Assembly: GCA_041657885.1 (NCBI GenBank)
Contig: JBBABB010000002.1
Span: forward strand, 25,483 to 89,482
Direction: 5' to 3'
Length of the DNA stretch: 64,000 nt
DNA from: Minisyncoccota bacterium
GTDB lineage: Bacteria > Patescibacteriota > Minisyncoccia > Phycocordibacterales > UBA9973
The position numbers and the translations under genes are program-made. The notes under the pieces were generated by a model that saw only the letters and a program-made list of their open reading frames with translations, searched no databases and was not told where the DNA came from. Every line of letters begins with the position of its first letter. Position 1 is the first letter of the stretch. Of this stretch, positions 1,294 to 55,483 are shown piece by piece.

Positions 1294-1337
1294 CTTCCTC
1301 CCCTGCTAAGGGTAGGTATCCAAAGGACGGAGGGGTT
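1294..1337. repeat. GC-rich element, family A half-copy (cTTCCTCCCCTGCTAAGGGtAGGTaTCCAAAGGACGGAGGGGTt).
   Basis: Related copies lie at 24076-24127 (reverse complement, inside cca) and 59572-59666 (full palindromic copy). Confidence 0.7.
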
Positions 1338-4300
1338 ATTGTTCTTTTATAATTAGAGTGATAACTTTTGTTACAACAGTTTTCTCTTTTGAACCTGAAG
1401 TATTTGAACATGTAAGGATGTAAGTAGTTGTTACGATTGGAGATACTATACGAGTACCTTGTTTTGTTCCCCCCGTATCAAATCCAGTACCAGTACAAGA
1501 ATCAGCTAGAGGTGAATCCCATGCGAGAGTTGATGACCTTCCTTCAAAGATTGTAGATGGATTTGCTTCAAATATAGTAGTATCACTTGGAGCATCTATT
1601 ACGCATTTTGCTGGTAGTGGTAATAGTTGCCAGTGTGTAGTAGGAGCACAGCCTGCTGTCACTGATAATGTTTTCAATGACAAAGCCCCGCTATATAAGG
1701 TGAGTATTTTCTCAACACCATAAACCAGAGAAAACGTTGCAGTTCCTGAAACTGCTGTCGTTGAAGGGACTATAGGACTAGTTCCATAACTTGCATCCAC
1801 TCTAGAATTACCAATTTTGTTTGTTACAGCCCAATCTAATTGAGCATCATTACAACTACTATTTCCTTCTGTAATTGAGCAACCACCCGAAGAAAGAGTT
1901 CCACTTGGAGTGACGCATTTACTCCCATCCCAAAATGTTTGAGGGGTGTCAGTACAGTCCGCATTAACTGTTTCTCTCTTTAATTCTACACCATTGTGAT
2001 AAAGATAAAATATTCTTCCTCCGCTAACTGATGTGTTTCCAACATTATAATTTACTGCGCCTGCGTTTGTTGATGAAACTCCTGTTCCTCCACCTCCGAC
2101 AATCGTATTACTAGGTTCTGTCGTAACAGCAGAAACAGAATTTACCGGATAAATTGTATTCCAACTTATATTGACAGGGCAACTACTTTCACCTTCACCT
2201 ATTTTACAACTAAGCGGATTAATCGTTAGTGTTCCCGACGGAGGATTACATATACCGTTTCCTAGAGTTGTATTTACCGGACACTCCGTATTTACCGTAA
2301 TCAAACCGGAAGTTCCTACCGCTGTTGTCGTCGTTGTATTTTGACATCGGATATAGTAACCGTAGGCACCAATTCCATTTGGAGAAGTATAAGTTTTTGT
2401 ATTGATTACATCTTTAGTTGCGGAAGTATATGCGGTTAAATCTGTTTGATTATTATCTAACAGTTTACATTGAACTAAACCTGAGTTTGTCGTCGGAGTG
2501 TAAGTGAAAGAAACATTTGTATTTGGAGTTGTATTGTAAGTTAGTGGAGAAGCAGTGACAGAGACAGTGACAGAGGTACAAGTTCCGGCAATAATTACTG
2601 AACCTGCTACACAAGTTGTACATGTTGGAGGGTTGGTTGCTCCATTTGCACAAGCAGTTGGTGTAAATGTAGCACTGATTGTATGATTGGCTGTGATGTT
2701 AGAAAATGTATATGAATTAGCAACAGTGATAGCACTTCCATCAACTGTTAGTGAAGCTATAGAATAATTAGTAATAGGAGTAATAGTATATATTTGATTA
2801 GAACCATATGCAACACTTGTTACGCCTGTTGGTGTTACTGTTCCATTTGCCCCTGATGAAGCTGTGATTGTTGGTCTAACTCGACAAGCTCCAGAAACAA
2901 AGTCACTACCTGTTGCACACGCCGTATTCACCGTAATCAAACCAGAAGTCCCTACCGCTGTTGTCGTTGTATTTTGACATCGAATATAGTAACCGTAGGC
3001 ACCAATTCCATTTGGAGAAGCATAAGTTTTTGTATTGACTACATCTTTAGTTGCGGAAGCATATGCGGTTAAATCTGCTTGATTATTATCTAACAGTTTA
3101 CATTGAACTAAACCTGAGTTTGTCGTCGGAGTGTAAGTGAAAGAAACATTTGTATTTGGAGTTGTATTGTAAGTTGTTGGAGAAGCAGTGACAGAGACAG
3201 TGACAGAGGTACATATTCCACCTATTATTGCAGAACCTGGCGGACAAGTTGTACACGTTGGATAGTTTGATGCTCCGTTTGAACAAATAAGCGAACAACC
3301 ATATATATTGCTAGGTCCAGTAGCATTATAATTAGTATCTGTAGCTGTTGTACATCCATACTTTGGGGCAGAACAAGTCGTTACTGTTCCACAAGTCCAT
3401 TTCCAGAGAAGTGAAGTATCAACAGGAGAACTTGAATTGAGCGTTCCAATTGTACAGGCACTTGTTCCAGTTGGTTCAGGATTTTGTGGGGTAGAACCAC
3501 TCCCGGGACCACAAGAATCAACAGGAACTGGAACATTGGTCCATGAGCTACAGTTATCGCCTTCATTCGATTCTGTAATCACCCCGCCACCCGCCGCTGA
3601 AGTCTTGTCGGCACAAACTCTGATTGAATACGTTCCAGCAGAACTAAATATATGACTAACACTTATAGTATTTGTTCCACTTGCAGCAAGAGTTGTCATT
3701 GAAGTAGATGTTTTGTCGGTAATAGTTCCTCCACCGTTGGCCGATGATGCAACTTGGAAGAAATTACTAAAGCTTGCACCTGTTGAAGCATTACCATTGT
3801 TTGTAATTGTTGAAGTGAAAGTTTGAGCAACGTTTATGTAAGCAGAAGATGGTGTTGGAGCTGAAGCTGTGAGATTAGGAGCAGGGCATGCTGGAGTTGT
3901 GAATGAGGCAGGAGTAACTGTCCATCCCGTTCCAGTTGTATTCGTCGCACAACCATACACATAGTATATAGTACTTGGAGTTAACCCCGTTTTAGACATT
4001 GTATATACCCCAGTTGTTCTACCTCCTTGGTCTACACAAGTTCCTGGTGAACCAATAGTAACAGAAGTCCCGCGGGCAGAAAGAGTGGCAGGAACACCTA
4101 AAGATGTAACATTTGCCCCAACTGTTGCGCTATTACAAGTTACAGAAGTTGCAGTTGGACTTGTGACAGTTGGAATAACTCCGACAGGTGCACATACTGA
4201 TCCATTCCAAGATGTAGCTACCGGAGTTTGAGAACAGCTAACAGTAATCGGTAAACTAGCAAGTATATTATCAACAGAAGTTCCATTATTTTCTCCATCA

Positions 4301-5859
4301 ACTTTATTTTTAGAAGTAAGAGTCACTGTTCCACTAGTCCCCCCTACAGAAATAGCACTTCCACTAAATGTTACATTGGTGTTACTACCAGAATTCCCAG
4401 AAACGACAGAAGTTCCTCCCGTTAAAGTAGTCGTTACCCCAGATTTTGGATTTGTTGTCCCCCAATTCATCGGAATATTACAACTTCCTTGTCCCGAAGA
4501 AATTGTACAGGCAGGTGAATACGTCGCAGCTAGAGTTCCAGATTGAGCCAATACATTTTGTATTGCACTTTTTGTAGTAGGAGAAGAAGAATTAGTACAA
4601 TCAAGCTGAAAATCGTTACTGTTGTTTTGTAGGCTTGAGACATTTTTTGGCTGGGGACTAAGATTATTATAAAATGTACCATATGTAGTACCATCAGTAT
4701 TATTTTTTAATATACAACCTCCAGAAGTAAGACCACTAACATTAACCACTAAATATGCCGTACCAATACCACTAGAGTCAGAACTACTTTTTTTAACTAA
4801 ATTTTTACTAGGATTATCTTTTTTTGTAAGTGTAACAGTCACAGTTTGAGAAATTAAATTAAACGTACCAATACATCTCACTGTTCTATTCATTGTAACC
4901 TGTCCATCGTTACAATCAGCATCATAAACCCAAGAACAGCCACTAGGACCTGAGCATGATAAACCAGTCCACCCAGCAAATGTTGAACCTGAACTTGGAG
5001 TAGCTGTAATATAGGCAGTTCGATTTAATAAATAATTCCCCGATCCGGTGAAAGACCCCGTGCCAGTTCCAGCAGATTCAGTTGAAAGTGCGTAGACATT
5101 GGAATCACAATTCATCCCATTCCATAAGGTACCAGAAGTACAAGAAGCCGTTGCCGAATCTGAAGATAACTGTACTCCGTTATAGAAAAGACGAAAGCTT
5201 CTAGTGGCTGTGCGATATTGATTAGTATCATCACCAACAATAGTTATAGGGTAAGTAGTACTGCCTGAAGTCAATGATGTTGGAGCTATTACATCAGTAT
5301 TCCAAGGAGTTGTTACAACTCTAGAAATTGCATTAGCAATAGGATTTGCTACACTCCAATTTATTTGGGAATTACAACTATTATATCCTGCCTGAACAGG
5401 ACAATCATTGGCATTTAAAACACCTGAGGGATTAGGCCCACCACCACCGATAGTAACAGTTGCTGACGCTGCAACTGAAGTATATCCAGACCTACTACAA
5501 GTTACAGTATAAGTTGTGGTTTGAGTAGGATTATAGACGACAGAACCAGAGGGAGTTGCTGCTTCAGCTTCTTTTATCCCTAATAAACTCGCAAACTTTT
5601 GTAGAAATGTTGATGGTACAAATGGTAATGGTAAAGTATTATTAATTCCTATAGGAACTCCTCCAGCATTAACAGTAATCGCACAAGTAGTGGCAATCGT
5701 TGATGACCAAGTAAGAGTTACAGGATTCCCTGATGCAACTGAAGTAGGAGATACACTGGCTTGAACGGTAATTCCAGTAAGAGCAGAAGCATTATTTGCA
5801 AAAAATAATGAACCGACCAAAATAATACTTAACACAAAAATTTTTGATAGATTTTTCAT
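1336..5859 (-). CDS. Giant secreted Ser/Thr/Gly-rich surface protein (1507 aa). It carries a CARDB-like module and an internal tandem duplication of about 110 aa.
   Basis: Signal peptide MKNLSKIFVLSIILVGSLFFANNASA. Motif STGASFSNFFQ ... YSIRVCADKTSAAGGGVITESNEGDNCSSW is shared with the proteins at 9320-11965 and 49670-52753. The C-terminal Ig-like module is homologous to that of 9320-11965. Confidence 0.85.
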   Translation of the reverse strand: MKNLSKIFVLSIILVGSLFFANNASALTGITVQASVSPTSVASGNPVTLTWSSTIATTCAITVNAGGVPIGINNTLPLPFVPSTFLQKFASLLGIKEAEAATPSGSVVYNPTQTTTYTVTCSRSGYTSVAASATVTIGGGGPNPSGVLNANDCPVQAGYNSCNSQINWSVANPIANAISRVVTTPWNTDVIAPTSLTSGSTTYPITIVGDDTNQYRTATRSFRLFYNGVQLSSDSATASCTSGTLWNGMNCDSNVYALSTESAGTGTGSFTGSGNYLLNRTAYITATPSSGSTFAGWTGLSCSGPSGCSWVYDADCNDGQVTMNRTVRCIGTFNLISQTVTVTLTKKDNPSKNLVKKSSSDSSGIGTAYLVVNVSGLTSGGCILKNNTDGTTYGTFYNNLSPQPKNVSSLQNNSNDFQLDCTNSSSPTTKSAIQNVLAQSGTLAATYSPACTISSGQGSCNIPMNWGTTNPKSGVTTTLTGGTSVVSGNSGSNTNVTFSGSAISVGGTSGTVTLTSKNKVDGENNGTSVDNILASLPITVSCSQTPVATSWNGSVCAPVGVIPTVTSPTATSVTCNSATVGANVTSLGVPATLSARGTSVTIGSPGTCVDQGGRTTGVYTMSKTGLTPSTIYYVYGCATNTTGTGWTVTPASFTTPACPAPNLTASAPTPSSAYINVAQTFTSTITNNGNASTGASFSNFFQVASSANGGGTITDKTSTSMTTLAASGTNTISVSHIFSSAGTYSIRVCADKTSAAGGGVITESNEGDNCSSWTNVPVPVDSCGPGSGSTPQNPEPTGTSACTIGTLNSSSPVDTSLLWKWTCGTVTTCSAPKYGCTTATDTNYNATGPSNIYGCSLICSNGASNYPTCTTCPPGSAIIGGICTSVTVSVTASPTTYNTTPNTNVSFTYTPTTNSGLVQCKLLDNNQADLTAYASATKDVVNTKTYASPNGIGAYGYYIRCQNTTTTAVGTSGLITVNTACATGSDFVSGACRVRPTITASSGANGTVTPTGVTSVAYGSNQIYTITPITNYSIASLTVDGSAITVANSYTFSNITANHTISATFTPTACANGATNPPTCTTCVAGSVIIAGTCTSVTVSVTASPLTYNTTPNTNVSFTYTPTTNSGLVQCKLLDNNQTDLTAYTSATKDVINTKTYTSPNGIGAYGYYIRCQNTTTTTAVGTSGLITVNTECPVNTTLGNGICNPPSGTLTINPLSCKIGEGESSCPVNISWNTIYPVNSVSAVTTEPSNTIVGGGGTGVSSTNAGAVNYNVGNTSVSGGRIFYLYHNGVELKRETVNADCTDTPQTFWDGSKCVTPSGTLSSGGCSITEGNSSCNDAQLDWAVTNKIGNSRVDASYGTSPIVPSTTAVSGTATFSLVYGVEKILTLYSGALSLKTLSVTAGCAPTTHWQLLPLPAKCVIDAPSDTTIFEANPSTIFEGRSSTLAWDSPLADSCTGTGFDTGGTKQGTRIVSPIVTTTYILTCSNTSGSKEKTVVTKVITLIIKEQ

Positions 5860-6038: not shown

Positions 6039-6968
6039 TCATTTCGGATGTATAAAGGTTTCCCTATTGGCATCTTTTTGACTGCCTGGATAATACACCC
6101 AGACTAAAGTGTCCTTTGTAAGTGTCATAATATTATAATTATTATATTCACACAAAGTCAACACAGATCCAGTCAAAGACCATGACCCCTCTTGAGTCTC
6201 ATTCTCACTGCCACAACGAACTTCACCGTTATCATAAACCCCTATTTTAGAAGGTGTAAGATAAAATTTTATCAAATCATCCTTCATGCATTCCCATATG
6301 TCTGCCTCAACCCAGGGATAACCAGATTCTTGTTGGAATTCCAACTTGATTTTTGACCATGGAGCTAAACAAAGTAGTTTTTCCTCATCTGTAAAGACAG
6401 GATCCTTAACTACAACGGTGACACTAGCTGTAGCTGACTTATTAGCTAATCCATAAACAGTTACAGTGTAATCTGTCGTAACCCCAGGTCCAACCTCAGT
6501 AGAACCAGAAAGACCATTTACTCCACCAAAGGTTGCCTTAATGGAAAGTGCATTTTCCGAAGTCCAACTGATAGTTGTCATTTCCCCTTCAAAAATTTCT
6601 GAGGGAGTAGCAGTAATAGCAACAGTCAGAACCTCAGTAGGCTCTTTTGCAACAATTTTTAGTTGCTGTTGAGCAGGAGCTATATCCATATTGCCTATTG
6701 GATAGGCGGTACAGGTAACAGTGATATTTTTATCTATCACTATTTCCTTGGTTCCTGAAAGAGGAACCGTGTCTTTGTTCACTATCACAATGCTAGCGTT
6801 TTCTACACTCCATCGGATAGTAACAACATCGCCAATCTCACACGAATCAGCCGAAGCTGAAAAAACACGTATAATTGGCTTAAGATTCACAACCGGTTCT
6901 TCTTCACATCCTGTAAACATAAGCAGGGAAAGAAAAAGACCCATCAGAAGAGAAAGCATCTTTTTCAT
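6039..6968 (-). CDS. Secreted lipoprotein with two Ig-like modules (309 aa).
   Basis: Lipobox LLMFTGC follows an N-terminal hydrophobic segment. Modules with conserved W and C match those in the giant proteins. Confidence 0.7.
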   Translation of the reverse strand: MKKMLSLLMGLFLSLLMFTGCEEEPVVNLKPIIRVFSASADSCEIGDVVTIRWSVENASIVIVNKDTVPLSGTKEIVIDKNITVTCTAYPIGNMDIAPAQQQLKIVAKEPTEVLTVAITATPSEIFEGEMTTISWTSENALSIKATFGGVNGLSGSTEVGPGVTTDYTVTVYGLANKSATASVTVVVKDPVFTDEEKLLCLAPWSKIKLEFQQESGYPWVEADIWECMKDDLIKFYLTPSKIGVYDNGEVRCGSENETQEGSWSLTGSVLTLCEYNNYNIMTLTKDTLVWVYYPGSQKDANRETFIHPK

Positions 6969-7030
6969 GATATGATTTATTTGTTTATTTTTTCAAGAGG
7001 ATTTGTTTAAATTTATCGTGACAAACGCTT

Positions 7031-7128
7031 ATTTATCCCCACACCTATATTTCCATCAAAAATATATAACAGCAGGGTATTTTTACTAAAAAAGCAGAAT
7101 GATGGGAATATGGGTGTGGGGATTTATC
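7031..7128. repeat. P-family MITE-like element. TIRs atttatCCCCACACCTATATTTCCATC / GATGGGAATATGGGTGTGGGGatttatc.
   Basis: The inverted pair is visible. The inner sequence aaaaagcagaatgatgggaatat recurs in the copy at 20539-20683. Confidence 0.8.
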
Positions 7129-7207
7129 AAGATAAAATTAAACAAATCCGAACAATATGCCTTTGTACTAATTATCTAAGTAATTAAGCATCATGTCAAG
7201 GAGTTTT

Positions 7208-7350
7208 ACCCCCACACCCACTTTTTCATTGCTTTAATATTGTGCCATTAAAATATTCAGAAATATATAAAATATCTTTATAAATCAAGTATAAATAATA
7301 ATATTCCTAAAAAATAAAGCACAATGATGAAAAAGTAGGTGTGGGGGTTT
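7208..7350. repeat. P-family MITE-like element. TIRs CCCCCACACCCACTTTTTCAT / ATGAAAAAGTAGGTGTGGGGG with an AT-rich core of about 100 bp.
   Basis: A perfect inverted repeat of about 21 bp. Confidence 0.8.
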
Positions 7351-7360
7351 ATGCACTTTT

Positions 7361-7527
7361 TATCCCCACACCTATATTTTTATAGATTTTCATCTTTTAA
7401 ATAAAAAACTACTTAATTGGTATTTCTAATAAATTATCGCGTAAAAATAGACATTTTGTATTCAAAATAATAAAAATATAGGTGTGGGGATTTATCCCAC
7501 CTTGCCACCTATATTTTTATTGCAGGC
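7361..7527. repeat. P-family element (tatCCCCACACCTATATTTTtata ... AAAAATATAGGTGTGGGGATTTATC) plus an adjacent partial inverted fragment ccaCCTATATTTTTATTGCAGGC.
   Basis: Inverted TIRs are present. The 3' fragment shares TTTTTATTGCAGGC with the copy at 1209-1287. Confidence 0.75.
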
Positions 7528-7771
7528 TCCTTTTTATCCTAATTTTAAGTTGAAATAATGCCCTGCCGTCCTTTTTTAGAGACGATTCTCTTTTCCTTGC
7601 ATCACTCTCATCAAAATATGATTCATAATATCTAAGTTCAAAAGGACGACGACTTTTAGTGGAAAAAACTTTACCATTATTATGATCCGAGAGCCTGCGT
7701 CGTAAATCATTTGTTGAGCCAATGTAAATATTATTGTCTTTTTTACTTTTTAAAATATATAAGTAGAACAT
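7517..7771 (-). CDS. GIY-YIG nuclease-superfamily small protein (YhbQ/UPF0213-like, 84 aa).
   Basis: N-terminal motif YLYILKSKKDNNIYIGSTNDLRRRLSDHN is a classic GIY-YIG. The gene is flanked on both sides by same-orientation copies of the P-family TIR. Confidence 0.8.
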   Translation of the reverse strand: MFYLYILKSKKDNNIYIGSTNDLRRRLSDHNNGKVFSTKSRRPFELRYYESYFDESDARKRESSLKKDGRALFQLKIRIKRSLQ

Positions 7772-7800
7772 ATATTTATATTATATGATTTATGACTATA

Positions 7801-7826
7801 AAAATATAGGTGTGGGGATTTATCCA
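7801..7826. repeat. Solo P-family TIR (AAAATATAGGTGTGGGGATTTATCC). It contains a perfect DnaA-box-like nonamer TTATCCACA.
   Basis: Identical to the right TIR at 7473-7497. Confidence 0.7.
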
Positions 7827-7866
7827 CAGGGCTCCAAAACCCTTTCCATAGTAGCAAGGACGGTCC

Positions 7867-8583
7867 TTGCTAATTTTTTATAAACCTTCAAAATTATTTA
7901 TGCAATCATTGAGATATTGCATTAATATACCATTTATGCTAGGATGTGGACTGGAGATTAGGTTAAACCTAAGTTCCAGTAGATATATGAATAATAAAGC
8001 TAAAAAAGGGGAATATTTAGACATTCTATTAAGATCAAAGAATAGCGTATTTTCAACGAAAGATATCGCTTTGCTTTGGCGTGATGTTCAAACAACGGCA
8101 TCGCAAGTAAGATTGAACTATTATGTTAAAGCTGGGAAGCTTATTAGAATTCGTAGAGGTATTTATGCAAAAGATAAAAATTATGATAAATATGAATTTG
8201 CGACTAAGATTTTTAGACCCTCATATATAAGTTTTGAAACTGTCTTAGGTGCATCTGGTATGACTTTCCAATATTATGGAAATATTTTTATTGCTTCATA
8301 TTTAAAGAGGGAGATTAAATGTGACGGACAAACTTATTCTTTTGTAAAAATGAAGGATTCTATTTTAAGTAACCCAAAAGGAATAGATCAAACAGGTGAA
8401 TATGCTATTGCTTCAAAAGAAAGAGCTTTCTTGGATACAATTTATAGAAGTAAAAAGTATTATTTTGATAATCATTCTCCGCTTGATTGGGATAAGGTAT
8501 TTGAAATGTTGCCAATTTATAATAATAAAAAAATGGCAAAAACTGTGCAAAAATATTATAAGGATTATAAAACTACTAAATAA
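7867..8583 (+). CDS. AbiEi-family type IV TA antitoxin / transcriptional regulator.
   Basis: wHTH region carries the LIRIRRGIYAK (RRG.Y) signature and the gene abuts the AbiEii-like gene downstream. The 5' end is uncertain. An internal ATG (MNNKAKKGEYLDILL) about 120 nt in is the likelier start. Confidence 0.65.
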   Translation: MLIFYKPSKLFMQSLRYCINIPFMLGCGLEIRLNLSSSRYMNNKAKKGEYLDILLRSKNSVFSTKDIALLWRDVQTTASQVRLNYYVKAGKLIRIRRGIYAKDKNYDKYEFATKIFRPSYISFETVLGASGMTFQYYGNIFIASYLKREIKCDGQTYSFVKMKDSILSNPKGIDQTGEYAIASKERAFLDTIYRSKKYYFDNHSPLDWDKVFEMLPIYNNKKMAKTVQKYYKDYKTTK

Positions 8584-8585
8584 AT

Positions 8586-9290
8586 ATGACATTAAATTAT
8601 CCAATACATAAAAATATTCTCGTACAGATACTTATTGATATTTACTCGGATACGACAATTAGCCCATATTTAGGTTTTAAAGGTGGAACGGCTGCTTATT
8701 TGTTCTATGGACTTGATCGTTATTCTGTTGACTTAGATATTGATATTTTAGATGAATCAAAAGAAGATTACATCTTTGAACAAGTTGAAAAAATAGGGAG
8801 AAAATATGGAGAAGTAAAAGAATCTCAAAAGAAAAGATTTAATCTAATATTTTTAATATCGTATGAGAATAAAGAAAAAAATGCTCAGAATATAAAAATT
8901 GAGATTAATCGTAGGTCTTTTGATTCAAAATATGAAGTTCGTGCCTTTAATGGTATTTCAATGCTTGTAATGGTCAAAGAAGATATGTTTGCTCATAAGC
9001 TTGTAGCCATGCACGAACGACTAGGAATAACTAATCGTGATATTTTTGATGTATGGTTTTTCTCAAAAAATAACTGGGAAATTAATAAAGAAATTATAGA
9101 AAAAAGAACAGGAATGTCATATAAAAAATTTCTTGAAGTATGCATTAAAGAATTAGAAAAGATGAATAATAACAATATTCTCCATGGTCTTGGTGAGCTT
9201 ATAACAGAAAAACAGAAAGCTTGGGTAAGATCAAAATTAAAACTTGAGACAATTTTACAACTAAAATTAAGATTAGAATCCGAAAATTAA
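8586..9290 (+). CDS. AbiEii/AbiGii-family nucleotidyltransferase toxin (DUF1814-like), 234 aa.
   Basis: Motif FKGGTAAYLFYGLDRYSVDLDIDI is the GGTAL..R.S.DID nucleotidyltransferase signature. Start lies 2 nt after the upstream stop. Confidence 0.7.
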   Translation: MTLNYPIHKNILVQILIDIYSDTTISPYLGFKGGTAAYLFYGLDRYSVDLDIDILDESKEDYIFEQVEKIGRKYGEVKESQKKRFNLIFLISYENKEKNAQNIKIEINRRSFDSKYEVRAFNGISMLVMVKEDMFAHKLVAMHERLGITNRDIFDVWFFSKNNWEINKEIIEKRTGMSYKKFLEVCIKELEKMNNNNILHGLGELITEKQKAWVRSKLKLETILQLKLRLESEN

Positions 9291-9319: not shown

Positions 9320-11965
9320 TTACGTTTCTATAATTTTTATACTACTAACTGTAATGGTAGCTTGCTTAAATTCAGTTATGTTATCTCTTGTACAAGAAAT
9401 TTTATAAACAGTTGTTTTCAATGGAACTACCGTTGAGCTACCATTTGGGTTATTAGTTCCTGTACTCCATTCACCAAATCCTGTTTCATTAAGAGCTTTG
9501 CAATTATCAGCATTTGAAGTCCACATAAGAACAGAAGATCTTCCTTTAAATATTTTAGCTGGATTTGGGGTAAAGGTTATTTTTAATAAGTTTCCACCGT
9601 TACCACCAAAAATATTATCCCCGGTGTCCGTACCTGTACCTGTGCCTGTACCTGTGCCTGTACCTGTACCTGTGCCTGTATCTACACTTGTATCGTCACC
9701 AATAGACGCTACACACTTCCCTCCATCCCATCCTGTTCCACTTTCACAACTTGCCCCAACCGGCAGAATATCAAGTGGTAAACTATTATGATTAAGGAAA
9801 AATGTAGTTCCCCCATAAGCAACTGGAATGTTTTTCCTTTCTACTGGGAAAGTAGGAATGACAGCAGATGAAACGACAATTGTATTGTTTGGATTTTTAG
9901 TAACATTAGTTTCTTTTCCTGTTATAGGATTAATAATGTCTATAGTCAAAGTTGTCTCACAATCACTTGCGTTTTCTTCTATCTCACAATCATCTCCAGA
10001 AAGAGTTCCAACAGTACCACCTTCAGGCGAAATATCAACAGGAACCCATGCGCTACAATTATTGTCCTCAACTAACTCTATAACTATTCCTAGACCAGCA
10101 GCAGAATTTTTATCTGCACAAGCTCTAATATAAAATGTTCCAGTAGCTTCAAACGAAATCGATTGTAAAGCGACCGCTGTTTTATCAACTGCAAGAGCAG
10201 ACATCCCCGGTACATCATAATCAGTTAATGTTCCTTCCCCTTCTGGAAGTGTTGATGTTTGAAATAAATTGGTAAAACTTTTACCTGTTGAAATTGAGCC
10301 TTGATTTTTTATTGTTGAGGAAAAATTTGTTGGCGTTTTAACTATCACCGAAAGTGGAGATGGAATTGAAGCTATTAGATCAGGTCTTGGCTCACAGATT
10401 GTTCCATTCCAAATCGTTTTAGGTGCACATGTCGCATTTATCGTCGCACCATTTGGAGTAATAGTTTCTCCGTTGTGATTCAAAAAGAAAGTTGTATTTG
10501 GATAATCAACTGTTATATTTGGTTTTTCTACTGGGAAAGTATTGATAATCGCAGAAGGAACAACGAGTGTATTTGGTTCAGGAATATTTTTTGTGACATT
10601 TGTTGGTGCTTTTGTAACCGGCTTATAAACATTTAATGTCAATGTTGTCTCACAATTGCTTTCATTCATTTTTATAACACAATCATTTCCACTTATACTT
10701 CCACCATTTGGGTCAACTGGCATTGTAACAATAACTTCTAACCAATCACTACAATTATCCCCTTCATCACTTTCTGTAATTTCACCTAAACTATCTCTAT
10801 TGCTTTTATCTGCACAAGCCCTGACAAAAAACGTTCCTTCTTCACCAAATACATACACCTGAGAAGCAGTACCAGAAGCCCCTTCGTTTAATTTCCCCAT
10901 TGTGGTTGGGTCTAAACCTATAGCTATTGTCTCGTCTTCCTTATCAGTCGTTACTTGGAAAAAGTTTGAAAAACCTTTATTGGTAGAGACATCTCCCGTA
11001 TTGCTAATTATTGAGGTATATGAATTAGAAACACCAACTTCTACTTTTGCTGGAGTATAAGTTGGAACTGAAGCTTTAAGATTAGGTTTATTTAGAGGAA
11101 CTTCAGGATTTTCACTATTACCACATCCCCAATCTATTCCGTAATTTTTTGCAACACTAGCTGAAAACCAACATGAATAAGGTGTGCAGTTATTCCCTTC
11201 ATCTGACTCATTGACATCTGACTCTACATCTGTACAAAATCTTACTTTATACCCTGTATAAGTCCCATTGGCTCCATTATTCTCTGCTGGGAAAGTAACT
11301 GGGGAGAAATTTGAAACTGCGTGACCCGCAGCAACTATCATTGGCATCTTATATTTACCGGTAATGAGGGCATTTTCTTTCCATGTAGTATTAGGAATAG
11401 TTGCTGGCTCAATAATGTTACCATTTTGGTCTAACCTTGCAGTTTTAGAAATTATTTCGTAAGAATTATAAAAAGATGTTTTTGTGCTAGAACCAATAGA
11501 GTTCCACACTCCTGGTCGAAAAGTTACGGGGTTACCAGCAGGATATCTCGCATTATTGTATTGAGAAGAACCGTTCGAATTTATCGTCAAATCTGATGGC
11601 TGATAAGTAACAACAAGAGTAGGAGTTATTGTGGTTTTTGTTACTTCAAAATTTTTACATATTAATTCATACTCTGTTGTGATTACAGGATAAACTGAAG
11701 TTGAAACTGTGGTTGTAACTGTAGGGTTTGAAATAGGATGTGATGAAATAAAAATATTACTTCCACCGTTATAATCAAAAAAATCACAAGAACTAGCTCC
11801 AACTACTTTCCAGGAAAGTGTTGCTGATTGACCTTCAATAATACTAGTCGGACTAGGGGCAAAATTGGTGATAACAATATCTGTTACAGCAAAGGTTTTA
11901 CTTGCAATAAATAAAGAGCCAAAAACAAATAGACCTGACACAAAAATTTTTAATAGATTTTTCAT
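9320..11965 (-). CDS. Giant secreted surface protein (881 aa) with two CARDB-like modules and a (TG)n linker. Paralog of the protein at 1336-5859.
   Basis: Signal peptide MKNLLKIFVSGLFVFGSLFIASKTFA resembles the paralog's. Motifs FVRACADKSNRDSLGEITESDEGDNCSDW and YIRACADKNSAAGLGIVIELVEDNNCSAW are present. The C-terminal Ig-like module is homologous to the paralog's. Confidence 0.85.
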   Translation of the reverse strand: MKNLLKIFVSGLFVFGSLFIASKTFAVTDIVITNFAPSPTSIIEGQSATLSWKVVGASSCDFFDYNGGSNIFISSHPISNPTVTTTVSTSVYPVITTEYELICKNFEVTKTTITPTLVVTYQPSDLTINSNGSSQYNNARYPAGNPVTFRPGVWNSIGSSTKTSFYNSYEIISKTARLDQNGNIIEPATIPNTTWKENALITGKYKMPMIVAAGHAVSNFSPVTFPAENNGANGTYTGYKVRFCTDVESDVNESDEGNNCTPYSCWFSASVAKNYGIDWGCGNSENPEVPLNKPNLKASVPTYTPAKVEVGVSNSYTSIISNTGDVSTNKGFSNFFQVTTDKEDETIAIGLDPTTMGKLNEGASGTASQVYVFGEEGTFFVRACADKSNRDSLGEITESDEGDNCSDWLEVIVTMPVDPNGGSISGNDCVIKMNESNCETTLTLNVYKPVTKAPTNVTKNIPEPNTLVVPSAIINTFPVEKPNITVDYPNTTFFLNHNGETITPNGATINATCAPKTIWNGTICEPRPDLIASIPSPLSVIVKTPTNFSSTIKNQGSISTGKSFTNLFQTSTLPEGEGTLTDYDVPGMSALAVDKTAVALQSISFEATGTFYIRACADKNSAAGLGIVIELVEDNNCSAWVPVDISPEGGTVGTLSGDDCEIEENASDCETTLTIDIINPITGKETNVTKNPNNTIVVSSAVIPTFPVERKNIPVAYGGTTFFLNHNSLPLDILPVGASCESGTGWDGGKCVASIGDDTSVDTGTGTGTGTGTGTGTGTDTGDNIFGGNGGNLLKITFTPNPAKIFKGRSSVLMWTSNADNCKALNETGFGEWSTGTNNPNGSSTVVPLKTTVYKISCTRDNITEFKQATITVSSIKIIET
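9632..9700. repeat. Hexanucleotide microsatellite (cctgtacctgtg)n encoding the in-frame dipeptide run DTGTGTGTGTGTGTGTGTDTGD.
   Basis: Tandem CCTGTA/CCTGTG units are visible inside the CDS. Confidence 0.85.
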
Positions 11966-44589: not shown

Positions 44590-45477
44590 ATGATTCATAA
44601 AGCGAAAAAATCAATGGGGCAGAATTTTCTTAAGTCCAAACCGGCACTCAATATGATGTGCGAGGCAGGAGAGGTAAATAACTCCGATACTATTCTTGAA
44701 ATTGGTCCGGGGAAAGGAGTACTGACAGAAAAACTTTTAGAAAAGGCGGGGAAGGTGATAGCGATTGAAAAAGACCGAGAACTATTTGAATTTTTAAAAG
44801 AAAAATTTGGAGAAGAAATAAAAAATAAAAAATTAATTTTATTAAATGAAGATATATTACAGTTTGAGTTCCCCTCCCCTTTGGGGAGGGCTGGGGAGGG
44901 GTTCCTAATTAAGAACCTCCCCTCATTCCCCTCCAAAGGAGGGGAGGAAATCAATTCTTATAAAATCATCGCCAACATTCCGTATAATATTACCGGCTCA
45001 ATTTTAAAAAAGTTTCTATCTTGCGAGAATCAACCAGAAAGAATGGTTCTCTTAGTGCAAAAAGAAGTCGCGGAAAGAATTGTCACTCGCGATGGCAAAG
45101 AAAGTATTTTGTCACTAAGCGTGAAGGCATACGGGACTCCGAAATACATAATGAAGGTTCATAAGCGATTTTTCTCACCAGCTCCTAAAGTAGATTCGGC
45201 TATTATTGCAATCAATAATATTTCTAGACAGAATTTTCATACAAAAAATGAAGAAAATGTGTTTTTTGGCTTGGTTAAAACAGGTTTTGCTCACAAAAGA
45301 AAAGTTCTTCGTAAAAATCTGGAAACTAAGGAAGTCGGACCCTCCTCGTCGGCGGGCATGCTTCCAAAGATTGATGAGATTTTTGAAAAATTAGGAATTA
45401 ATCCGAATGCTCGCGCCGAGGATATCAAGTTCGAAAAATGGCTTCTGATTTCTCGTCTTTTATCCACAGATATCTAG
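44590..45477 (+). CDS. rsmA: 16S rRNA (adenine1518/1519-N6)-dimethyltransferase RsmA/KsgA, with an in-frame insertion of about 27 aa.
   Basis: MGQNFLKS, EIGPGKGVLT, NIPYNITG. The family B palindrome encodes EFPSPLGRAGEGFLIKNLPSFPSKGGEEI just before the NIPYNI motif. Confidence 0.9.
   Translation: MIHKAKKSMGQNFLKSKPALNMMCEAGEVNNSDTILEIGPGKGVLTEKLLEKAGKVIAIEKDRELFEFLKEKFGEEIKNKKLILLNEDILQFEFPSPLGRAGEGFLIKNLPSFPSKGGEEINSYKIIANIPYNITGSILKKFLSCENQPERMVLLVQKEVAERIVTRDGKESILSLSVKAYGTPKYIMKVHKRFFSPAPKVDSAIIAINNISRQNFHTKNEENVFFGLVKTGFAHKRKVLRKNLETKEVGPSSSAGMLPKIDEIFEKLGINPNARAEDIKFEKWLLISRLLSTDI
44868..44949. repeat. Family B GC-rich palindromic element of about 82 bp, in-frame inside rsmA.
   Basis: TTCCCCTCCCCTTTGGGGAGGGCTGGGGAGGGGTTCCTAATT | AATTAAGAACCTCCCCTCATTCCCCTCCAAAGGAGGGGAGGAA. 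An intergenic reverse-complement copy lies at 56449-56540. Confidence 0.85.
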
Positions 45478-46487: not shown

Positions 46488-49400
46488 ATGAGAAAACAAA
46501 CTATAACAAAAATAATTGGAGGTATGATTATCTTTGTTTTCGTTGTATCTTTTTTCCAATTTGCCCTACCTATACAGGCTACTACTACGACAAATCTGCC
46601 AGACCTTTACTCTAATCCAAACCAAACCAGTGCCAAAAATCCATATAAATTCACTTTGGCTTCCGTATTAAAATCTGGAATACTCCAAAATGTTATTGGT
46701 TGTACAGGTGTTGTAAATAAAGTTGCTACTTGGATGTCAACATTGCTACAATCTCCAGCACAAATAGCTAAAACTTTAAAAGCTAAAAAAGATAAAATCA
46801 AAGAACAATTAACAGCAACGTGTTTAGCTGTTAAAGCTGGAGCTCAAATAGCAGGACAAATTATCCCATCTATTGGAGGTCTTGCTCCCGCAATAGATAC
46901 TGCAATGGCAGGTGTAAAAATTGACGGAGTAGAAGTATGTAAGGCGCAAGCTGAAGTGACCGTCGACAAAATGACTGATGCACAAATTGAAGCAAATGAG
47001 AGAGAAGCGGCAAATACCTTAAAAGACCAATGCTTTGACGGTATCGCTATTATGCTTGCTAAGAATCAACTCACTTCTATGACCCGTAGTGCTATGAACT
47101 GGGTAAATACTGGGTACGGAGGCAATCCGTTCTTTGTCCAGAATGTACAGAATTTTGCAAATAAACTTGAACAAAATGTCGTAGAAACAGGAATAGATAT
47201 ATTACTCACACCAAAAAATCAAAACCCATATGCTAGTGATTTTGTTAAATCGGTTATAGCAAGTAGGGGCATAGGAAAAAGTTTTACTAGTTCTCTTTTT
47301 AATCTTAAATCCGACTTGGGAGCTTTTATAACAGACCCACAATCTTATTATACTGAAGAACATCTCAGTGATGCAGAAAAAACACAAATGGCACTCAGAA
47401 GAGCACAGGGTGCAAATAATGCTTTTGCGAATGATTTCTCTGTTGGTGGTTGGGATGGATGGCTTGCCTTAACCCAAAGAGACCAGAATAACCCTCTTGG
47501 TTTTACTATGCTTGCAAGCCAATATTTAGAAGAAGCCCAAACACAAGCAGTGGCTGAGAAAAAAGACGAGTTATTACAAAATAATGGATTTTTAAGTCAG
47601 AAAAAATGTGTTTTGTGGCAAGTGTATGGGGAAGACCATAAACCAAAATATGAGGAGGGTGGTTTTTCTCCATCAGGATTAGCTAAATCATCTTTTACAC
47701 CAATTACTCAAAAAACTAAACCATCTATATGTTATAAATCTGGTGGTGAATGTTGTGTAGAGTGGGAAGTAGTAACCCCCGGAAGTATCATCAAAGAGCA
47801 AACGGCAAATTATTTGGCTTCTCCACAGCGTCAACTTGAGCTTGTAAAAACAATAAACGATGGAATAAATGCTCTTTTTTCTTATTTAATTTCTGAATTA
47901 GAAAATGCCGGCCTTTCAGGACTTTCAGATTCTGTTGATAATCCAGCAAATTTTGACGATAATACAAACTTTATTAGTTCAGATGGAAATACTCCTTATG
48001 ATAACAATGGCGCTTATGATGGTTTCAATCTAACCCGTGACTTAGGAAATACTTATATACACACCACCCCAATAAAATTAGGAAATTGGCATGCTGATAC
48101 AAATGCAACAGATAGTGATTATGACAAAGATGATAATTACGATAATGGAAAATTATATCAAGGAGAAGCTCCTATAGATATTCCTAGTGGAAAAAGTGCT
48201 GTTGACTCATACTACACAGTAACGATAGCCGGAAAAACAGAACTTTTACTTGATGGTTATAATGGTTGGAATGAGGGAGACAGAGCATTTTGGGATGGAA
48301 GTGAGTGGCAAAATTGGAAGAAAGATGTGAAAGATGAAAGTGGAGTAATTCAAAAAACAAACCCTATAAAGAAAAGGGGAGTAATTCAAATTCAACAAGA
48401 TTATATTGTGGCAGCGACTGAGATACTAAAAGTTTTACCAAGTGTAATGACAAAGCTCGGCGAGCTTGATTATTGTATTCCCGGACCAAATCCAAGTTAT
48501 CTAACAAATTCCACAGATGCTCAGTCCGCATATCAGGATTGGGTTGGGTCGCTTTATGTTGGGCCAATAGATGCAGCAAGACAAGTTTATACAATAGACC
48601 ACCCAGGAGAAAGAACGTATGATAATTTAGCAAATATATTTACTGATAGTCCAAGCGTTTGGAAAACAATAAAAAATTCTATGGACTTTTTGTTAGAGAA
48701 TTTTGATAGTTATAAATATATAACTGGTAATATTTTTAGTGGTAGTAATAAAAAACAAAAAATAGTTGACAAAAAAAGAAACTTAATGGATGTTAACATG
48801 GATTATGCAAACAGTAGTCTCTTCCAAAATTTCTATGAGAACTTTGATAAAATGATGAATAAACTCTACTTCAACAATATGACTAGTATGTATAATGAGT
48901 ATGAGAATAGATCAATAACTTTACCGACAACAAATAGCACAGGGGATAAAAACTTAGGTTACATCCCAATGGCTGAAAGCGGGCTTGACCTGACAAAAAA
49001 TATAATGTACTACGCCGAGGATATAGCAAAAGTAACACAAGAGTATAGCGATGATATCGCCATAGCAAAAGTAAATATCGCCAAACTTGAACCAATTAAA
49101 GCGGAAGTGAGTAAAATTATAAAAGATGCACAAGACCGCCGTGATAAAAGATTGCTTGAGATAGTTAATAAAGAAATGTGTAATGAAAATTATACAAAAT
49201 GTATGCAAGATGGATTTGGTCTTACCGGCCAACAGAAATCAGCAATAGGGAATAGGGGTTCCTATTGTAATATAAACCAAACAACTTGTAATGAGAATGA
49301 GAAACCGGTGACAGATGCACAAGTAGCACAATACAAAGAAAAATATAAAGAATGTCTCGCTGAAGAAAATATGAATTTCTATGATGCAGATACAATAATG

Positions 49401-49652
49401 AATATTGGTGGTGCTGACGCTGAAAGATGCTTCAATGGAATTGATGACGATTTAGATGGATTGATAGATACAAAAGATCCTGATTGTTTTGGAGTAACAC
49501 CTGTTGTTCATTGTGTAAGAAGTGGAATTTCCACCCCATATACAGGAAGAATAAATGCTGGAAGTAAATGTTCCGATATAACAGACAGTCAATCTTGTAG
49601 TTTATATCATGAATATGAGTCTAACTTGGCATGGCAGTGTGAATGGAAATAA
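46488..49652 (+). CDS. Large secreted protein (1054 aa) with a Cys-rich C-terminus that includes a TSP3-like Ca-binding motif.
   Basis: Signal/TM IIGGMIIFVFVVSFFQFALPIQA. CFNGIDDDLDGLIDTKDPDC. Confidence 0.7.
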   Translation: MRKQTITKIIGGMIIFVFVVSFFQFALPIQATTTTNLPDLYSNPNQTSAKNPYKFTLASVLKSGILQNVIGCTGVVNKVATWMSTLLQSPAQIAKTLKAKKDKIKEQLTATCLAVKAGAQIAGQIIPSIGGLAPAIDTAMAGVKIDGVEVCKAQAEVTVDKMTDAQIEANEREAANTLKDQCFDGIAIMLAKNQLTSMTRSAMNWVNTGYGGNPFFVQNVQNFANKLEQNVVETGIDILLTPKNQNPYASDFVKSVIASRGIGKSFTSSLFNLKSDLGAFITDPQSYYTEEHLSDAEKTQMALRRAQGANNAFANDFSVGGWDGWLALTQRDQNNPLGFTMLASQYLEEAQTQAVAEKKDELLQNNGFLSQKKCVLWQVYGEDHKPKYEEGGFSPSGLAKSSFTPITQKTKPSICYKSGGECCVEWEVVTPGSIIKEQTANYLASPQRQLELVKTINDGINALFSYLISELENAGLSGLSDSVDNPANFDDNTNFISSDGNTPYDNNGAYDGFNLTRDLGNTYIHTTPIKLGNWHADTNATDSDYDKDDNYDNGKLYQGEAPIDIPSGKSAVDSYYTVTIAGKTELLLDGYNGWNEGDRAFWDGSEWQNWKKDVKDESGVIQKTNPIKKRGVIQIQQDYIVAATEILKVLPSVMTKLGELDYCIPGPNPSYLTNSTDAQSAYQDWVGSLYVGPIDAARQVYTIDHPGERTYDNLANIFTDSPSVWKTIKNSMDFLLENFDSYKYITGNIFSGSNKKQKIVDKKRNLMDVNMDYANSSLFQNFYENFDKMMNKLYFNNMTSMYNEYENRSITLPTTNSTGDKNLGYIPMAESGLDLTKNIMYYAEDIAKVTQEYSDDIAIAKVNIAKLEPIKAEVSKIIKDAQDRRDKRLLEIVNKEMCNENYTKCMQDGFGLTGQQKSAIGNRGSYCNINQTTCNENEKPVTDAQVAQYKEKYKECLAEENMNFYDADTIMNIGGADAERCFNGIDDDLDGLIDTKDPDCFGVTPVVHCVRSGISTPYTGRINAGSKCSDITDSQSCSLYHEYESNLAWQCEWK

Positions 49653-49669
49653 TAAATTATTAAAAATAT

Positions 49670-52600
49670 ATGGAAAAAAACCCTAAAAAAAGTAAAGCTC
49701 TCATCATAACAATAATTTTAATTGTCTTGCTTTTAATTGCTGGGTATTTTATTTTTAAGAATAAAGATAGTATTTTCAAAATTAAAACTTCTACTAATAC
49801 TTTTACTTCACTTCCTGCATCAGAGAATAAACCGGGATTTCTCGCTAAAATATTCTCCCCACTTCTTCCATCAAGTAATTCAAAAAATCTAGATACGGGT
49901 GAGAACATCAAGACTACATACGCAGAAGCGGGAGAAAACATTAAGAAAGGGGACATCGTTTATAAAGTAGGTACAAATAAAAATAATTTGCCTATAGTGA
50001 GAAAAACTGGACTTCAGAATCAAAATAAATTCGGTACTGCCCTTGAAGATATAAATATGGGAAGCTTTGGCAATATTGCTGTTGATAGTAGTTTCTGGGG
50101 AAGTATAAAAGATTTTTTTAATAACACAACAGGTAATATTGGAAACTGGGTAGGTGGAATATTCAGAGGTAATGGTGGAACTGGCCCTAGTAGTAATACG
50201 TGCACAAATGGTGCAACTAATCCGACTTTGTGTACTACTATTGGTGGTAATTGTATAAATAATGCAACTAATCCACCCCTCTGTACGACTATGGATAACG
50301 ATACAAACATTTTCCCCACAGTCACAGTTATAGCAACCCCAGCATCAATTGCAAAAGGTGAATCATCCACTATTAGTTGGGAATCAACAAATGCAGATGC
50401 TTGTAATGCTGGCACTGGTAATGGGACGGGGAAGACGGGGTCATTCTCAACTGGAATACTTCAATCAAGTAGGTCATATACAGTGACTTGTACTGGAGTA
50501 AATGGAACAGGTAGTGGAAATATCTTAGTGGCTGTTGGTGGAGGAGGAAATGTTTGTCCTACCGGCTGGACGGGGACTTACCCTAACTGTACTGATCCCA
50601 ATTCTAATAGTTGCCCTGCCGGTTGGACAGGGACTTTTCCTAACTGTACCAATACTGGAAACTGTCCTGTCGGTTGGACCGGAACTTATCCTGTCTGTAC
50701 TGACCCCAATTCCAATGTTTGCCCTGCGGGTTGGATGGGAACCTACCCTGACTGTACTGACCCCAATTCCAATAGTTGTCCTGTCGGGTGGACGGGGACT
50801 TTTCCTAACTGTACCAATATTGGGGGCTGCCCTCTTGGCTGGACGGGGACTTACCCTGACTGTATTGCCCCTAATTTTATATTTCCCTCTGTCACTGTTT
50901 GGGCAACACCACCAATAGTTGAATACGGTGAAAAATCGGAGATTGGTTGGGAATCAAAAAATACTGAATACTGCGTGGAGGGTGCTGTGGGTAATGCATC
51001 GCCCGATGGTAGTGTAAATAATAAAAAAGGTATAAAAGGAAAACTTACGACGGGAGCATTGCTTAGTAGTAAATCATTTACAATAACTTGTTATGACAAG
51101 AATGGAGGAGGAGTGAGTGGAAGCGTTGTTGTTTTCGTCAACCTAGCTGGAGTCCCAGATCTTCGAGCCACTGACCCGACACCAACGACAGTTCTCGTTG
51201 GAGTAAACACAATGTTCTATTCAGATATAATAAACCAAGGAACTGCATCGACTGGAGAAACTACTTTCTACAACATAATGCAATGGGCAAAACCCGCTTT
51301 TACAACGACTACGACTGGTGCAACTGGTGCGACTAGTCCTGACTCAAGTGACTCTACTGGCGGTTCTTCTTCCTCTGAAACAAACACCTTTATGGATGAA
51401 TCAAAATTAATCCCTATTGATTTGCCAAAAGTCAGGATGAAAACTATTCCAGCGGGAGAATCTCAACCTTTTACAATTGTCTATAATTTTAAAGACATAG
51501 GTACATACTATATAAGAGTTTGTGCCGATAAACAAAGTCAGACAGATGCTGGAAATATTAATGAAGGAACAAATGAAAATAACAATTGCAGCAATTGGGT
51601 AGCAATAGCAGTCACAAATTCACTTCCAACACCATGTCCTCAGCTAACAGATGCTACTGGTAAATGTGTTTCTGTAGATGAATGTCTGGCACTGAATAAA
51701 ATCGTTTCAGGGGATCAATGTGTTGACGACCCATCGGTTTGTCCTCCCCCTAAAATAAAAGATACTACTGGTAAATGTATAGATGCATCTGAAGTTATAC
51801 CACCAAATATTTGTAAAGATATAGAACAAAACCCACTAACTTTCACCCCTGAAGAGAAAGCCAGATTGGCAGTATTGCTCCGTAAGTTTTATCTAATATC
51901 CTCAACCCTTAGAACAAGTGACGATATCTCCACAATATATAGCGACATTGACCAACAGAAAATTTTTATGGGACAAATTGATGGATTAACAAAGCAGTGT
52001 TATTTGCAGATAAATGATACAGATGGATACAAAAATTTCTGTTCAAGAAATCCGAGTTTGTGTAAAACCACAGATATACCTACTTCTGGTATACCTACTC
52101 CTGGCTATAAAGACAATTATTATACACAAGGACAAAACTTAACATTAAGACGCGGAAATCCTTGGTATCAAAAAACGTCGGGTGGAACATTCCCTTACAC
52201 AGGTAATAATGTTTTTGATAAAAATGGTGTTTCGATTAAAGACCCAGAAGGAAAACCAATCACTGCTGGATACATGGATTACAACTGGTTAGAAGGTAAT
52301 TATATAGATAACGGAAATGGTAATTATTCTCCATATTTAAGCCCAAGCCAAAAAGCAAGTGGGGCGTCTTCAACTGCTTCATCAGATGGTCCTGGCTGTA
52401 AGGTTGTATCTGGTTATTATTATGGAACATTAACAAGAGATGTAATTTTAACAAAAGATACCCCTGATATAGGCATACTCATACTAATGATGCCATATCA
52501 AGGAATAATAAATGCTGCAATAGAAGCACTTACTCCGACTAAGGTATGGAGTGCAGGAGAAAGTTGTGATAAATTTAATTTAGACATTAGGGATGATCAA

Positions 52601-52753
52601 AATAATCTAATAACCAATAATTGTTATTACAACAATACAAAAATATTTGGAAATTGGAATGCCCCTCCAAGTCAAACTTTACTTGAAAGTGGCTGTAAGT
52701 GGGTAGATGGAGTGGATATGATAAACACGGAAAGGATTTTGAATATTTGGTAG
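49670..52753 (+). CDS. Large secreted protein (1027 aa) with Ig-like modules, a tandem CPxGWTGTYPxCTDPNSN repeat array and a CARDB-like module.
   Basis: Signal anchor ALIITIILIVLLLIAGYFIF. Six tandem Cys-rich units of 17-19 aa. YIRVCADKQSQTDAGNINEGTNENNNCSNW. Confidence 0.8.
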   Translation: MEKNPKKSKALIITIILIVLLLIAGYFIFKNKDSIFKIKTSTNTFTSLPASENKPGFLAKIFSPLLPSSNSKNLDTGENIKTTYAEAGENIKKGDIVYKVGTNKNNLPIVRKTGLQNQNKFGTALEDINMGSFGNIAVDSSFWGSIKDFFNNTTGNIGNWVGGIFRGNGGTGPSSNTCTNGATNPTLCTTIGGNCINNATNPPLCTTMDNDTNIFPTVTVIATPASIAKGESSTISWESTNADACNAGTGNGTGKTGSFSTGILQSSRSYTVTCTGVNGTGSGNILVAVGGGGNVCPTGWTGTYPNCTDPNSNSCPAGWTGTFPNCTNTGNCPVGWTGTYPVCTDPNSNVCPAGWMGTYPDCTDPNSNSCPVGWTGTFPNCTNIGGCPLGWTGTYPDCIAPNFIFPSVTVWATPPIVEYGEKSEIGWESKNTEYCVEGAVGNASPDGSVNNKKGIKGKLTTGALLSSKSFTITCYDKNGGGVSGSVVVFVNLAGVPDLRATDPTPTTVLVGVNTMFYSDIINQGTASTGETTFYNIMQWAKPAFTTTTTGATGATSPDSSDSTGGSSSSETNTFMDESKLIPIDLPKVRMKTIPAGESQPFTIVYNFKDIGTYYIRVCADKQSQTDAGNINEGTNENNNCSNWVAIAVTNSLPTPCPQLTDATGKCVSVDECLALNKIVSGDQCVDDPSVCPPPKIKDTTGKCIDASEVIPPNICKDIEQNPLTFTPEEKARLAVLLRKFYLISSTLRTSDDISTIYSDIDQQKIFMGQIDGLTKQCYLQINDTDGYKNFCSRNPSLCKTTDIPTSGIPTPGYKDNYYTQGQNLTLRRGNPWYQKTSGGTFPYTGNNVFDKNGVSIKDPEGKPITAGYMDYNWLEGNYIDNGNGNYSPYLSPSQKASGASSTASSDGPGCKVVSGYYYGTLTRDVILTKDTPDIGILILMMPYQGIINAAIEALTPTKVWSAGESCDKFNLDIRDDQNNLITNNCYYNNTKIFGNWNAPPSQTLLESGCKWVDGVDMINTERILNIW
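50540..50880 (+). repeat. Tandem DNA repeats with a 51-57 nt period, encoding CP.GWTGT(Y/F)P.CT(D/N)PNSN units.
   Basis: The six units are visible in the translation. Confidence 0.8.
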
Positions 52754-52863
52754 GAGGGGGAATAATTAAGAATTAATAATTAAGAATTTAAAGAGGAAAA
52801 GTAGTAAGGGGGATTAAGTAGTAGGTAGCATGTAGCAAGTAGTGAGAGAAATAATAAATACAA

Positions 52864-55476: not shown

Positions 55477-55483
55477 TTAAACA

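Follow-up and report, generated by a model that had tools for sequence, protein, structure and literature searches.

The Periscope Proteins (SasG/Aap, Rib/Alpha C, Sgo_0707 SHIRT and others) are bacterial cell-surface proteins composed of β-sandwich repeats, each longer than 50 residues, whose DNA sequences show very high identity; it has been proposed that homologous recombination among the repeats alters protein length in frame (PMC8201768, PMC9704523). The cagY gene of Helicobacter pylori, which encodes a surface-exposed protein, likewise contains intragenic direct repeats, and recombination among them always gives in-frame variants (PMC2194252). Repeat modules of one gene can also be homogenised by gene conversion (concerted evolution), as has been described for spidroin repeats (PMC3933166) and reviewed for bacterial antigens (PMC4534519). 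Here we describe a pair of near-identical repeats within the gene for a 1507-aa protein of a Minisyncoccota bacterium, located in a 64-kb stretch of contig JBBABB010000002.1 (64,000 nucleotides, hereafter the window). The pair probably represents an old two-copy architecture whose copies have recently been made alike by intragenic gene conversion; a fresh duplication is less likely.

The locus resembles the Periscope Proteins in having β-sandwich repeats with high DNA identity, and a change of length in frame is conceivable here as well. It differs from them in several respects: the repeats of that group form a head-to-tail array with very high DNA identity, whereas here there are two copies, interleaved with a heterologous InlB-like domain encoded by a 263-nt spacer; the copies are 91% identical overall and 96% identical in the core, short of the near-100% identity of Periscope repeats; no cell-wall anchor has been identified; and the organism belongs to the candidate phyla radiation (CPR), with the repeat known from one sequence. 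With cagY the locus shares direct DNA repeats within a presumed surface-protein gene and an in-frame outcome of any recombination between them, but cagY has many repeats and experimentally shown rearrangements, as opposed to a single repeat pair in one sequence. The relation to concerted evolution is considered with the evidence for conversion (see below).

The repeat and the protein that carries it

The 1507-aa open reading frame (ORF) is the first large ORF of the window, and both repeat copies lie inside it. Its product is 100% identical to NCBI MFA5773454.1 (P0082), annotated as 'CARDB domain-containing protein [Candidatus Paceibacterota bacterium]' and derived from a 212-kb contig of a metagenome-assembled genome (MAG). 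The features concerned are as follows.

1336..5859, minus strand: the 1507-aa gene, with Pfam matches to CARDB and Flg_new_2 and a 100% match to P0082
2917..3286, minus strand: copy A, the 5' copy in the gene (aa ~858-981), Cys-rich linker and domain X, from the blastn self-match
2654..2916, minus strand: unique 263-nt spacer between the copies, encoding a connector and an InlB-B-repeat-like (Flg_new_2) domain, from database matches that bear PF18998
2281..2653, minus strand: copy B, the 3' copy in the gene (aa ~1069-1193), Cys-rich linker and domain X, from the blastn self-match

A preliminary description of this DNA had reported two segments, almost identical at the DNA level, as a tandem duplication of about 330 bp with a period of about 633 bp at 2440-3405, and had proposed a comparison of the gene with itself. 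Such a comparison (blastn) gives one strong off-diagonal match, 91.15% identical over 373 columns with E of 1e-150, in which nucleotides 2574-2943 of the gene match nucleotides 3207-3579. The near-identity is thus real and the consensus peptide quoted for it is correct (124 aa of the two copies align at 87.9% identity), but the limits need correction. The repeat is 370/373 nt long, with ~297 nt near-identical (96%) and the first 72 nt 74% identical; the interval given for it lacks the last 159 nt of copy B (2281-2439) and extends 119 nt beyond copy A. Two alternative-frame mini-ORFs that had been pointed out, at 2465-2653 and 3098-3298, do exist, and are merely frame-shifted readings of the repeated DNA.

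The period of 633 holds for most of the repeat. A separate repeat search of the window gave 300 nt at 93% with a spacing of 633 and 54 nt at 91% with a spacing of 636; the shift comes from a 3-nt indel, an extra ACG codon (Thr) in copy B at 2332-2334, and both offsets are multiples of 3. The word tandem has to be given up: the 263 nt of unique sequence at 2654-2916 separate the copies, which are interspersed direct repeats and not a head-to-tail pair. Tandem Repeats Finder (longest period 500) does not report them. They are the longest repeat of the window. No third copy was found in the window by blastn or tblastn, and a silent-cassette system was rejected because the window holds no further copies of X.

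Each copy of the repeat consists of a Cys-rich linker of ~25 aa, with the pattern NGA(S/T)N.PTCTTC..GS.II.G.C, and a domain of ~97 aa that we call X. The linker belongs to a Cys-rich unit of ~28 aa that elsewhere builds arrays of 9 to more than 19 units, e.g. in P0127 and P0172. X has no match in Pfam, NCBIfam or PDB sequence/profile searches, and an exhaustive HMMER search of 1.84 billion representative proteins found it in 79 only, most of them with 2-5 copies; the few named X-bearing proteins are from Paceibacterota or Nomurabacteria. Its conserved features are an invariant Cys in the QCKLL strand and a YGYYIxC motif. The AlphaFold2 model of X, built on a 48-sequence alignment, is all-β with a predicted local distance difference test score (pLDDT) of 96.4; it is a β-sandwich that can be superposed on Ig, PKD or FN3 modules (E-set), and on the strength of this model X is read as a generic Ig-like β-sandwich. 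X and its Cys-rich linker constitute an unannotated domain family whose occurrence seems to be restricted to a few giant surface proteins. The spacer encodes a small C-x-TG-x-DFVSG-x-C connector and the InlB-B-repeat-like domain, and nearly all database matches to it (query residues ~142-232) carry PF18998.

In a Pfam scan the whole 1507-aa protein matches CARDB (aa 661-771) and the InlB-B-repeat-like family Flg_new_2 only; the latter (PF18998) scores 30.5 bits against a cutoff of 23.6, in two stretches, above the gathering score. The modules of the protein are an N-terminal hydrophobic signal-like segment, CARDB, InlB-B-repeat-like and Ig-like domains, and it contains 54 Cys. The signal-like segment, the Cys content and the nature of the modules point to an extracytoplasmic location of the protein, and it is presumably located at the surface and adhesin-like in its role. 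No anchor motif was identified in it. Its C-terminal Ig-like domain of ~80 aa (window 1336-1500) is conserved in P0083, P0085 and the L001 ORF, giant proteins that diverge otherwise; the end of the 1507-aa protein, ...IIKEQ, resembles the ...AINEQ of P0083, and the L001 ORF ends in ...IFIED. This conserved C-terminus may represent a common sorting or anchoring signal of the giant proteins.

Divergence between the copies and its origin

The near-identity of the copies at the DNA level means that whatever made them alike is recent, and to this extent the preliminary description, which spoke of a recent event, was right. The 30 substitutions between the copies are, nevertheless, distributed very unevenly: 19 of them fall in the 72 columns of the linker and 11 in the other 297 (Fisher p = 3.7e-8). 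The segments that differ in this way are listed here.

3214..3285, minus strand: linker A, 24 codons, NGASNYPTCTTCPPGSAIIGGIC; partner linker B at 2581-2652; 19 differences in 72 nt
2986..3213, minus strand: X-domain core A, 76 codons, 228 nt; partner core B at 2353-2580; putative latest conversion tract
3079..3175, minus strand: longest perfect run, 97 nt; partner at 2446-2542; from column-by-column comparison
2917..2985, minus strand: 3' end of X-domain A (last β-strands); partner at 2281-2352; intermediate divergence

Synonymous and nonsynonymous divergence per site (dS and dN, by the Nei-Gojobori method) follow the same division. The linkers have dS of 0.72 and dN of 0.22; in the X core, dS is 0 (none of 57.7 synonymous sites) and dN is 0.036; at the 3' end of X there are 4 synonymous differences and 1 nonsynonymous, i.e., dS of 0.25 and dN of 0.02. 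The heterogeneity of synonymous differences between linker and X is significant (Fisher p = 3.6e-5), and a perfect run of 97 nt would have a probability of 0.002 if the 30 differences were placed at random. Adjacent segments with dS of 0.72, 0 and 0.25 are not what one duplication and clock-like divergence thereafter would give, and in this respect the idea of one recent duplication is not supported.

The arrangement of modules leads away from a fresh duplication, too. A super-module of 345 aa, linker-X-InlB-linker-X, aligns with residues 366-687 of P0097 as one collinear high-scoring segment pair (58% identity, E of 2e-115). The alignment runs across the InlB-to-linker junction, ISATFTP(T/S)AC(A/T)NGATNP, and the spacer of the 1507-aa gene is collinear with P0097 residues 480-572. 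The same layout is also present in P0096 and P0103. The two X copies within one protein are 58% identical in P0097 and 44% identical in P0103, so that this gene shares its layout with a 58%-identical homologue whose own X copies have diverged to 58%.

Gene conversion within such an old module could have proceeded as follows. The ancestral super-module, linker-X-InlB-linker-X, would be the inherited architecture of the giant-protein family. Non-reciprocal homologous recombination between the direct repeats would recently have overwritten one X with the other; the X core (228 nt) would be the minimum extent of the latest conversion tract, tracts that were earlier or longer would have extended to the 3' end of X, and the linkers would have escaped conversion, thereby retaining their older divergence. 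Afterwards, copy B (or copy A) would have gained a few G:C to A:T transitions and one codon slippage. The mechanism of conversion and its direction are what we infer from this pattern. Copies A and B are 88-89% identical in amino acid sequence, compared to 58% and 44% between the two X copies of P0097 and of P0103, and to at most 63% between copy A and any of 46 other X copies (alignment A1). As in concerted evolution, the copies within the gene are more alike than the equivalent copies in homologues, synonymous divergence is mosaic, with a tract of identity flanked by older divergence, and the tract ends cross module borders; the difference is that conversion is deduced here from one sequence and distant homologues.

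The main rival to gene conversion is a plain recent segmental duplication with a fast-evolving linker, whereby the linker and X (~370 nt) would have been copied once to a site 263 nt downstream; in a variant of this explanation, a [linker-X-InlB] unit would have been duplicated by unequal crossing-over, with the second InlB then lost and the linker diverging faster. Copies A and B are mutual nearest neighbours in a neighbour-joining tree of X copies, as both explanations would have it. They also share a 5-aa insertion, ATKDV[V/I], which is absent from 12 of 12 other X copies aligned; because both copies carry this lineage-specific insertion, the copying post-dates it. An offset that is an exact multiple of 3 and the existence of [linker-X-InlB] arrays in P0096 and P0103, which make unequal crossing-over plausible, are further points in favour of duplication. 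What it leaves unexplained is that adjacent segments of one repeat range in dS from 0.72 to 0, which is not expected from one event, that the insertion point and the junction would coincide exactly with those of the second linker-X of P0097, and that there is no remnant of a second InlB after copy B. For these reasons we consider duplication a serious contender, though an unlikely one.

Several points weigh against gene conversion in an old two-copy module and should be set beside the evidence for it. The dS estimates are based on 24-76 codons, and the linker is a fast-evolving module, which might diverge quickly after a plain duplication. The ancestral two-copy state at this locus is deduced from homologues that are ~50-58% identical, and the tree that groups copies A and B lacks support values. 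Segment identities give a weak signal of position-specific orthology between copy B and copy 2 of P0097, essentially one residue (ASPL vs ASPT). Finally, X is ~58% identical to copy 1 of P0097, which equals the 58% within P0097's own pair, so that these identities do not date the two-copy state against the split of the lineages.

The same comparisons bear on the possibility of an assembly artefact, namely that strain variants of a single X region were joined to give a spurious second copy. The sequence comes from a MAG, and repeats can be misassembled from short reads; yet the two-copy structure is in frame, and the unique InlB spacer and its two junctions align collinearly with homologues obtained independently from other samples. 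Moreover, the copies are separated by 30 substitutions and an indel, and their longest exact run is 97 nt, so the repeat is resolvable by standard k-mers and read pairs. An artefact is, in our opinion, very improbable.

The nature of the substitutions brings up one more explanation, targeted hypermutation of the kind carried out by diversity-generating retroelements (DGRs), in which one copy would have been mutated with the other as template. Like a DGR, the locus has two near-identical repeats of ~100-300 nt tied to a surface or ligand-binding protein. In the X core there are 6 nonsynonymous nucleotide differences, one double change ACA/CTA (Thr/Leu) and four G to A changes (three Ala to Thr, one Val to Ile), so that 4 of the 5 changed core codons have G in copy A and A in copy B, all at the first position, and these four lie within a 58-nt stretch that encodes surface loops. 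Directional as they look, the four changes need no selection and are unremarkable, because only 3 of the 30 G sites in the core can change to A synonymously, and G:C to A:T is expected to be the commonest mutation at 35-40% GC; a G to A change in the core is thus almost always nonsynonymous. Positive selection on the X core, suggested by 0 synonymous against 6 nonsynonymous differences, was considered and dropped (P ~0.17-0.24 under neutrality).

When the whole repeat is considered, each of the four bases occurs at differing sites in either copy (at the 30 differing sites, copy A has G9, T8, C7 and A6, and copy B has A11, C9, T7 and G3), and the differences are not adenine-specific; most of the 116 adenines of copy A are identical in copy B. 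The components of a DGR are likewise absent: a Pfam scan of 40 ORFs of the window revealed no reverse-transcriptase (RVT) domain, and an Rfam scan of the window found 4 tRNAs only, with no group II intron or other RNA family. A DGR acts on a C-terminal variable region of C-type lectin fold, encoded at the 3' end of its gene, and has a separate, usually non-coding template. Here the repeat is a plain Ig-like sandwich, and both copies are translated and internal to one ORF, at aa ~858-981 and ~1069-1193 of 1507. The DGR explanation was rejected on these grounds, i.e., the lack of a reverse-transcriptase domain in the 40 ORFs scanned, the spread of differences over all bases and the internal coding position of both copies, and its chance is close to nil, in agreement with the preliminary description, which had already judged the locus not to be DGR-like.

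Repeats in related proteins and elsewhere in the window

Near-identical copies are found in other members of the giant-protein family, in genes that come from other metagenomes. The L127 locus, which carries the gene of P0096, has a 515-nt tract of 89% identity that crosses the border of X and reaches the middle of the InlB-like domain; 3.6 kb upstream there is a third X, 91% identical to both other copies. In L001, which carries the gene of P0103, two copies of the InlB-like domain at a distance of 1287 nt share 94% identity, and the copy between them is 64% identical. The positions of these repeats in their own sequences are as follows.

L127, 491-759, 4144-4658 and 4768-5282: intragenic repeats of X or of the InlB-like domain
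L001, 960-1220 and 2247-2507: intragenic InlB-like repeats

The X copies within P0146, P0154 and P0168 are 98, 79 and 73% identical in amino acid sequence, respectively. Tracts that ignore module borders, and homogenisation across kilobases, argue for gene conversion rather than duplication module by module, and homogenisation of X or InlB-like copies recurs independently across the family. Directly tandem X pairs behave differently in the tree: their first copies form one clade and their second copies another, and these position-specific clades indicate that such pairs are old and have not been homogenised.

The search for homologues of the whole super-module, and the scans of two sequence collections, were dominated by the ubiquitous InlB B-repeat. 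In both scans, L001 alone covered the whole super-module, and the same or a near-identical locus was not found in either collection (best identity 50%). The protein collection contains one identical protein only, and the next homologue is 34% identical.

The neighbouring genes in the window are of the common bacterial housekeeping kind (NusA, H+-PPase, trigger factor, ClpP, RNase Y, PNPase and others). The 1507-aa gene is flanked by genes for an 881-aa CARDB protein (9320-11965) and for a 309-aa lipoprotein-like protein (6039-6968), the latter with Ig-like repeats and a lipocalin-like domain, so that surface-protein genes are clustered in this region. A type IV toxin-antitoxin (abortive infection) pair, consisting of an AbiEi antitoxin and an AbiEii nucleotidyltransferase toxin, occupies 7867-9290, between the two CARDB giant-protein genes. 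Farther away, at 46488-63458, three proteins of ~870-1050 aa with absent or sub-threshold Pfam matches start a cluster that resembles type IV secretion or pilus systems; they are followed by PrgI-like, TraG/VirB4-type P-loop, T4SS-pilin and SLT, and peptidoglycan-binding proteins.

The window contains smaller repeats of other kinds. In the 900-nt gap (6969-7866) between the lipoprotein-like gene and the AbiEi gene lie all copies of the 15-mer GGTGTGGGGATTTAT or its complement, with 5 occurrences at up to 2 mismatches against 0.14 expected; the copies frequently follow AAAAATATA. About 50 nt downstream of the stop codon of the 1507-aa gene lies a related long inverted repeat (1213-1283), CCCCCACACCTACTTTTTTAT...ATAAAAAAGTAGGTGTGGGGG, which may be a terminator-like element or one resembling repetitive extragenic palindromic (REP) sequences. 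Two copies of a GC-rich palindromic element (~84-92 nt, 87% identity) are present in inverted orientation, at 44872-44955 and 56444-56535. One copy is intergenic, and the other is in frame inside the ksgA/rsmA (RrnaAD) ORF (44590-45477), where it adds 28 aa (PSPLGRAGEGFLIKNLPSFPSKGGEEIN) immediately ahead of the conserved NIPYNIT motif. Rickettsia palindromic elements insert in frame into genes, and the copy in ksgA/rsmA is reminiscent of them.

Recombination and surface-protein variation

In E. coli, stretches of roughly 20-30 bp of identity are required for RecA-dependent recombination. The perfect runs shared by the two direct repeats reach 97 nt, which makes the repeats a plausible substrate for homologous recombination, and the suggestion, already made in the preliminary description, that they could expand or contract the protein is a conceivable one: gain or loss of 633 or 636 nt would remain in frame, and crossing-over between the copies could delete 211 or 212 codons (one X and the InlB-like domain) or add a third X.

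It may be asked whether selection keeps the linker-X-InlB super-modules of Paceibacterota and other Parcubacteria near-identical for in-frame switching of adhesin length or valency. The signature of such selection would be the recurring 89-98% identical X or InlB copies in unrelated members of the family (the 1507-aa protein, P0096, P0103 and P0146). We find this doubtful; if it were true, it would be the first variable-length surface system described in CPR bacteria, Periscope-like and belonging to host-dependent cells.

Intragenic gene conversion is commonplace in the repetitive surface proteins of bacteria, and this locus would be a new example of it; the unannotated X domain family is the only mildly new element. 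For annotation, the change is from a recent tandem duplication to an old repeat probably homogenised by gene conversion, and the repeat marks a recombination-prone and assembly-sensitive spot in the MAG. Length variants, if found in reads, would give the first handle on surface-protein variation in these uncultured CPR episymbionts.

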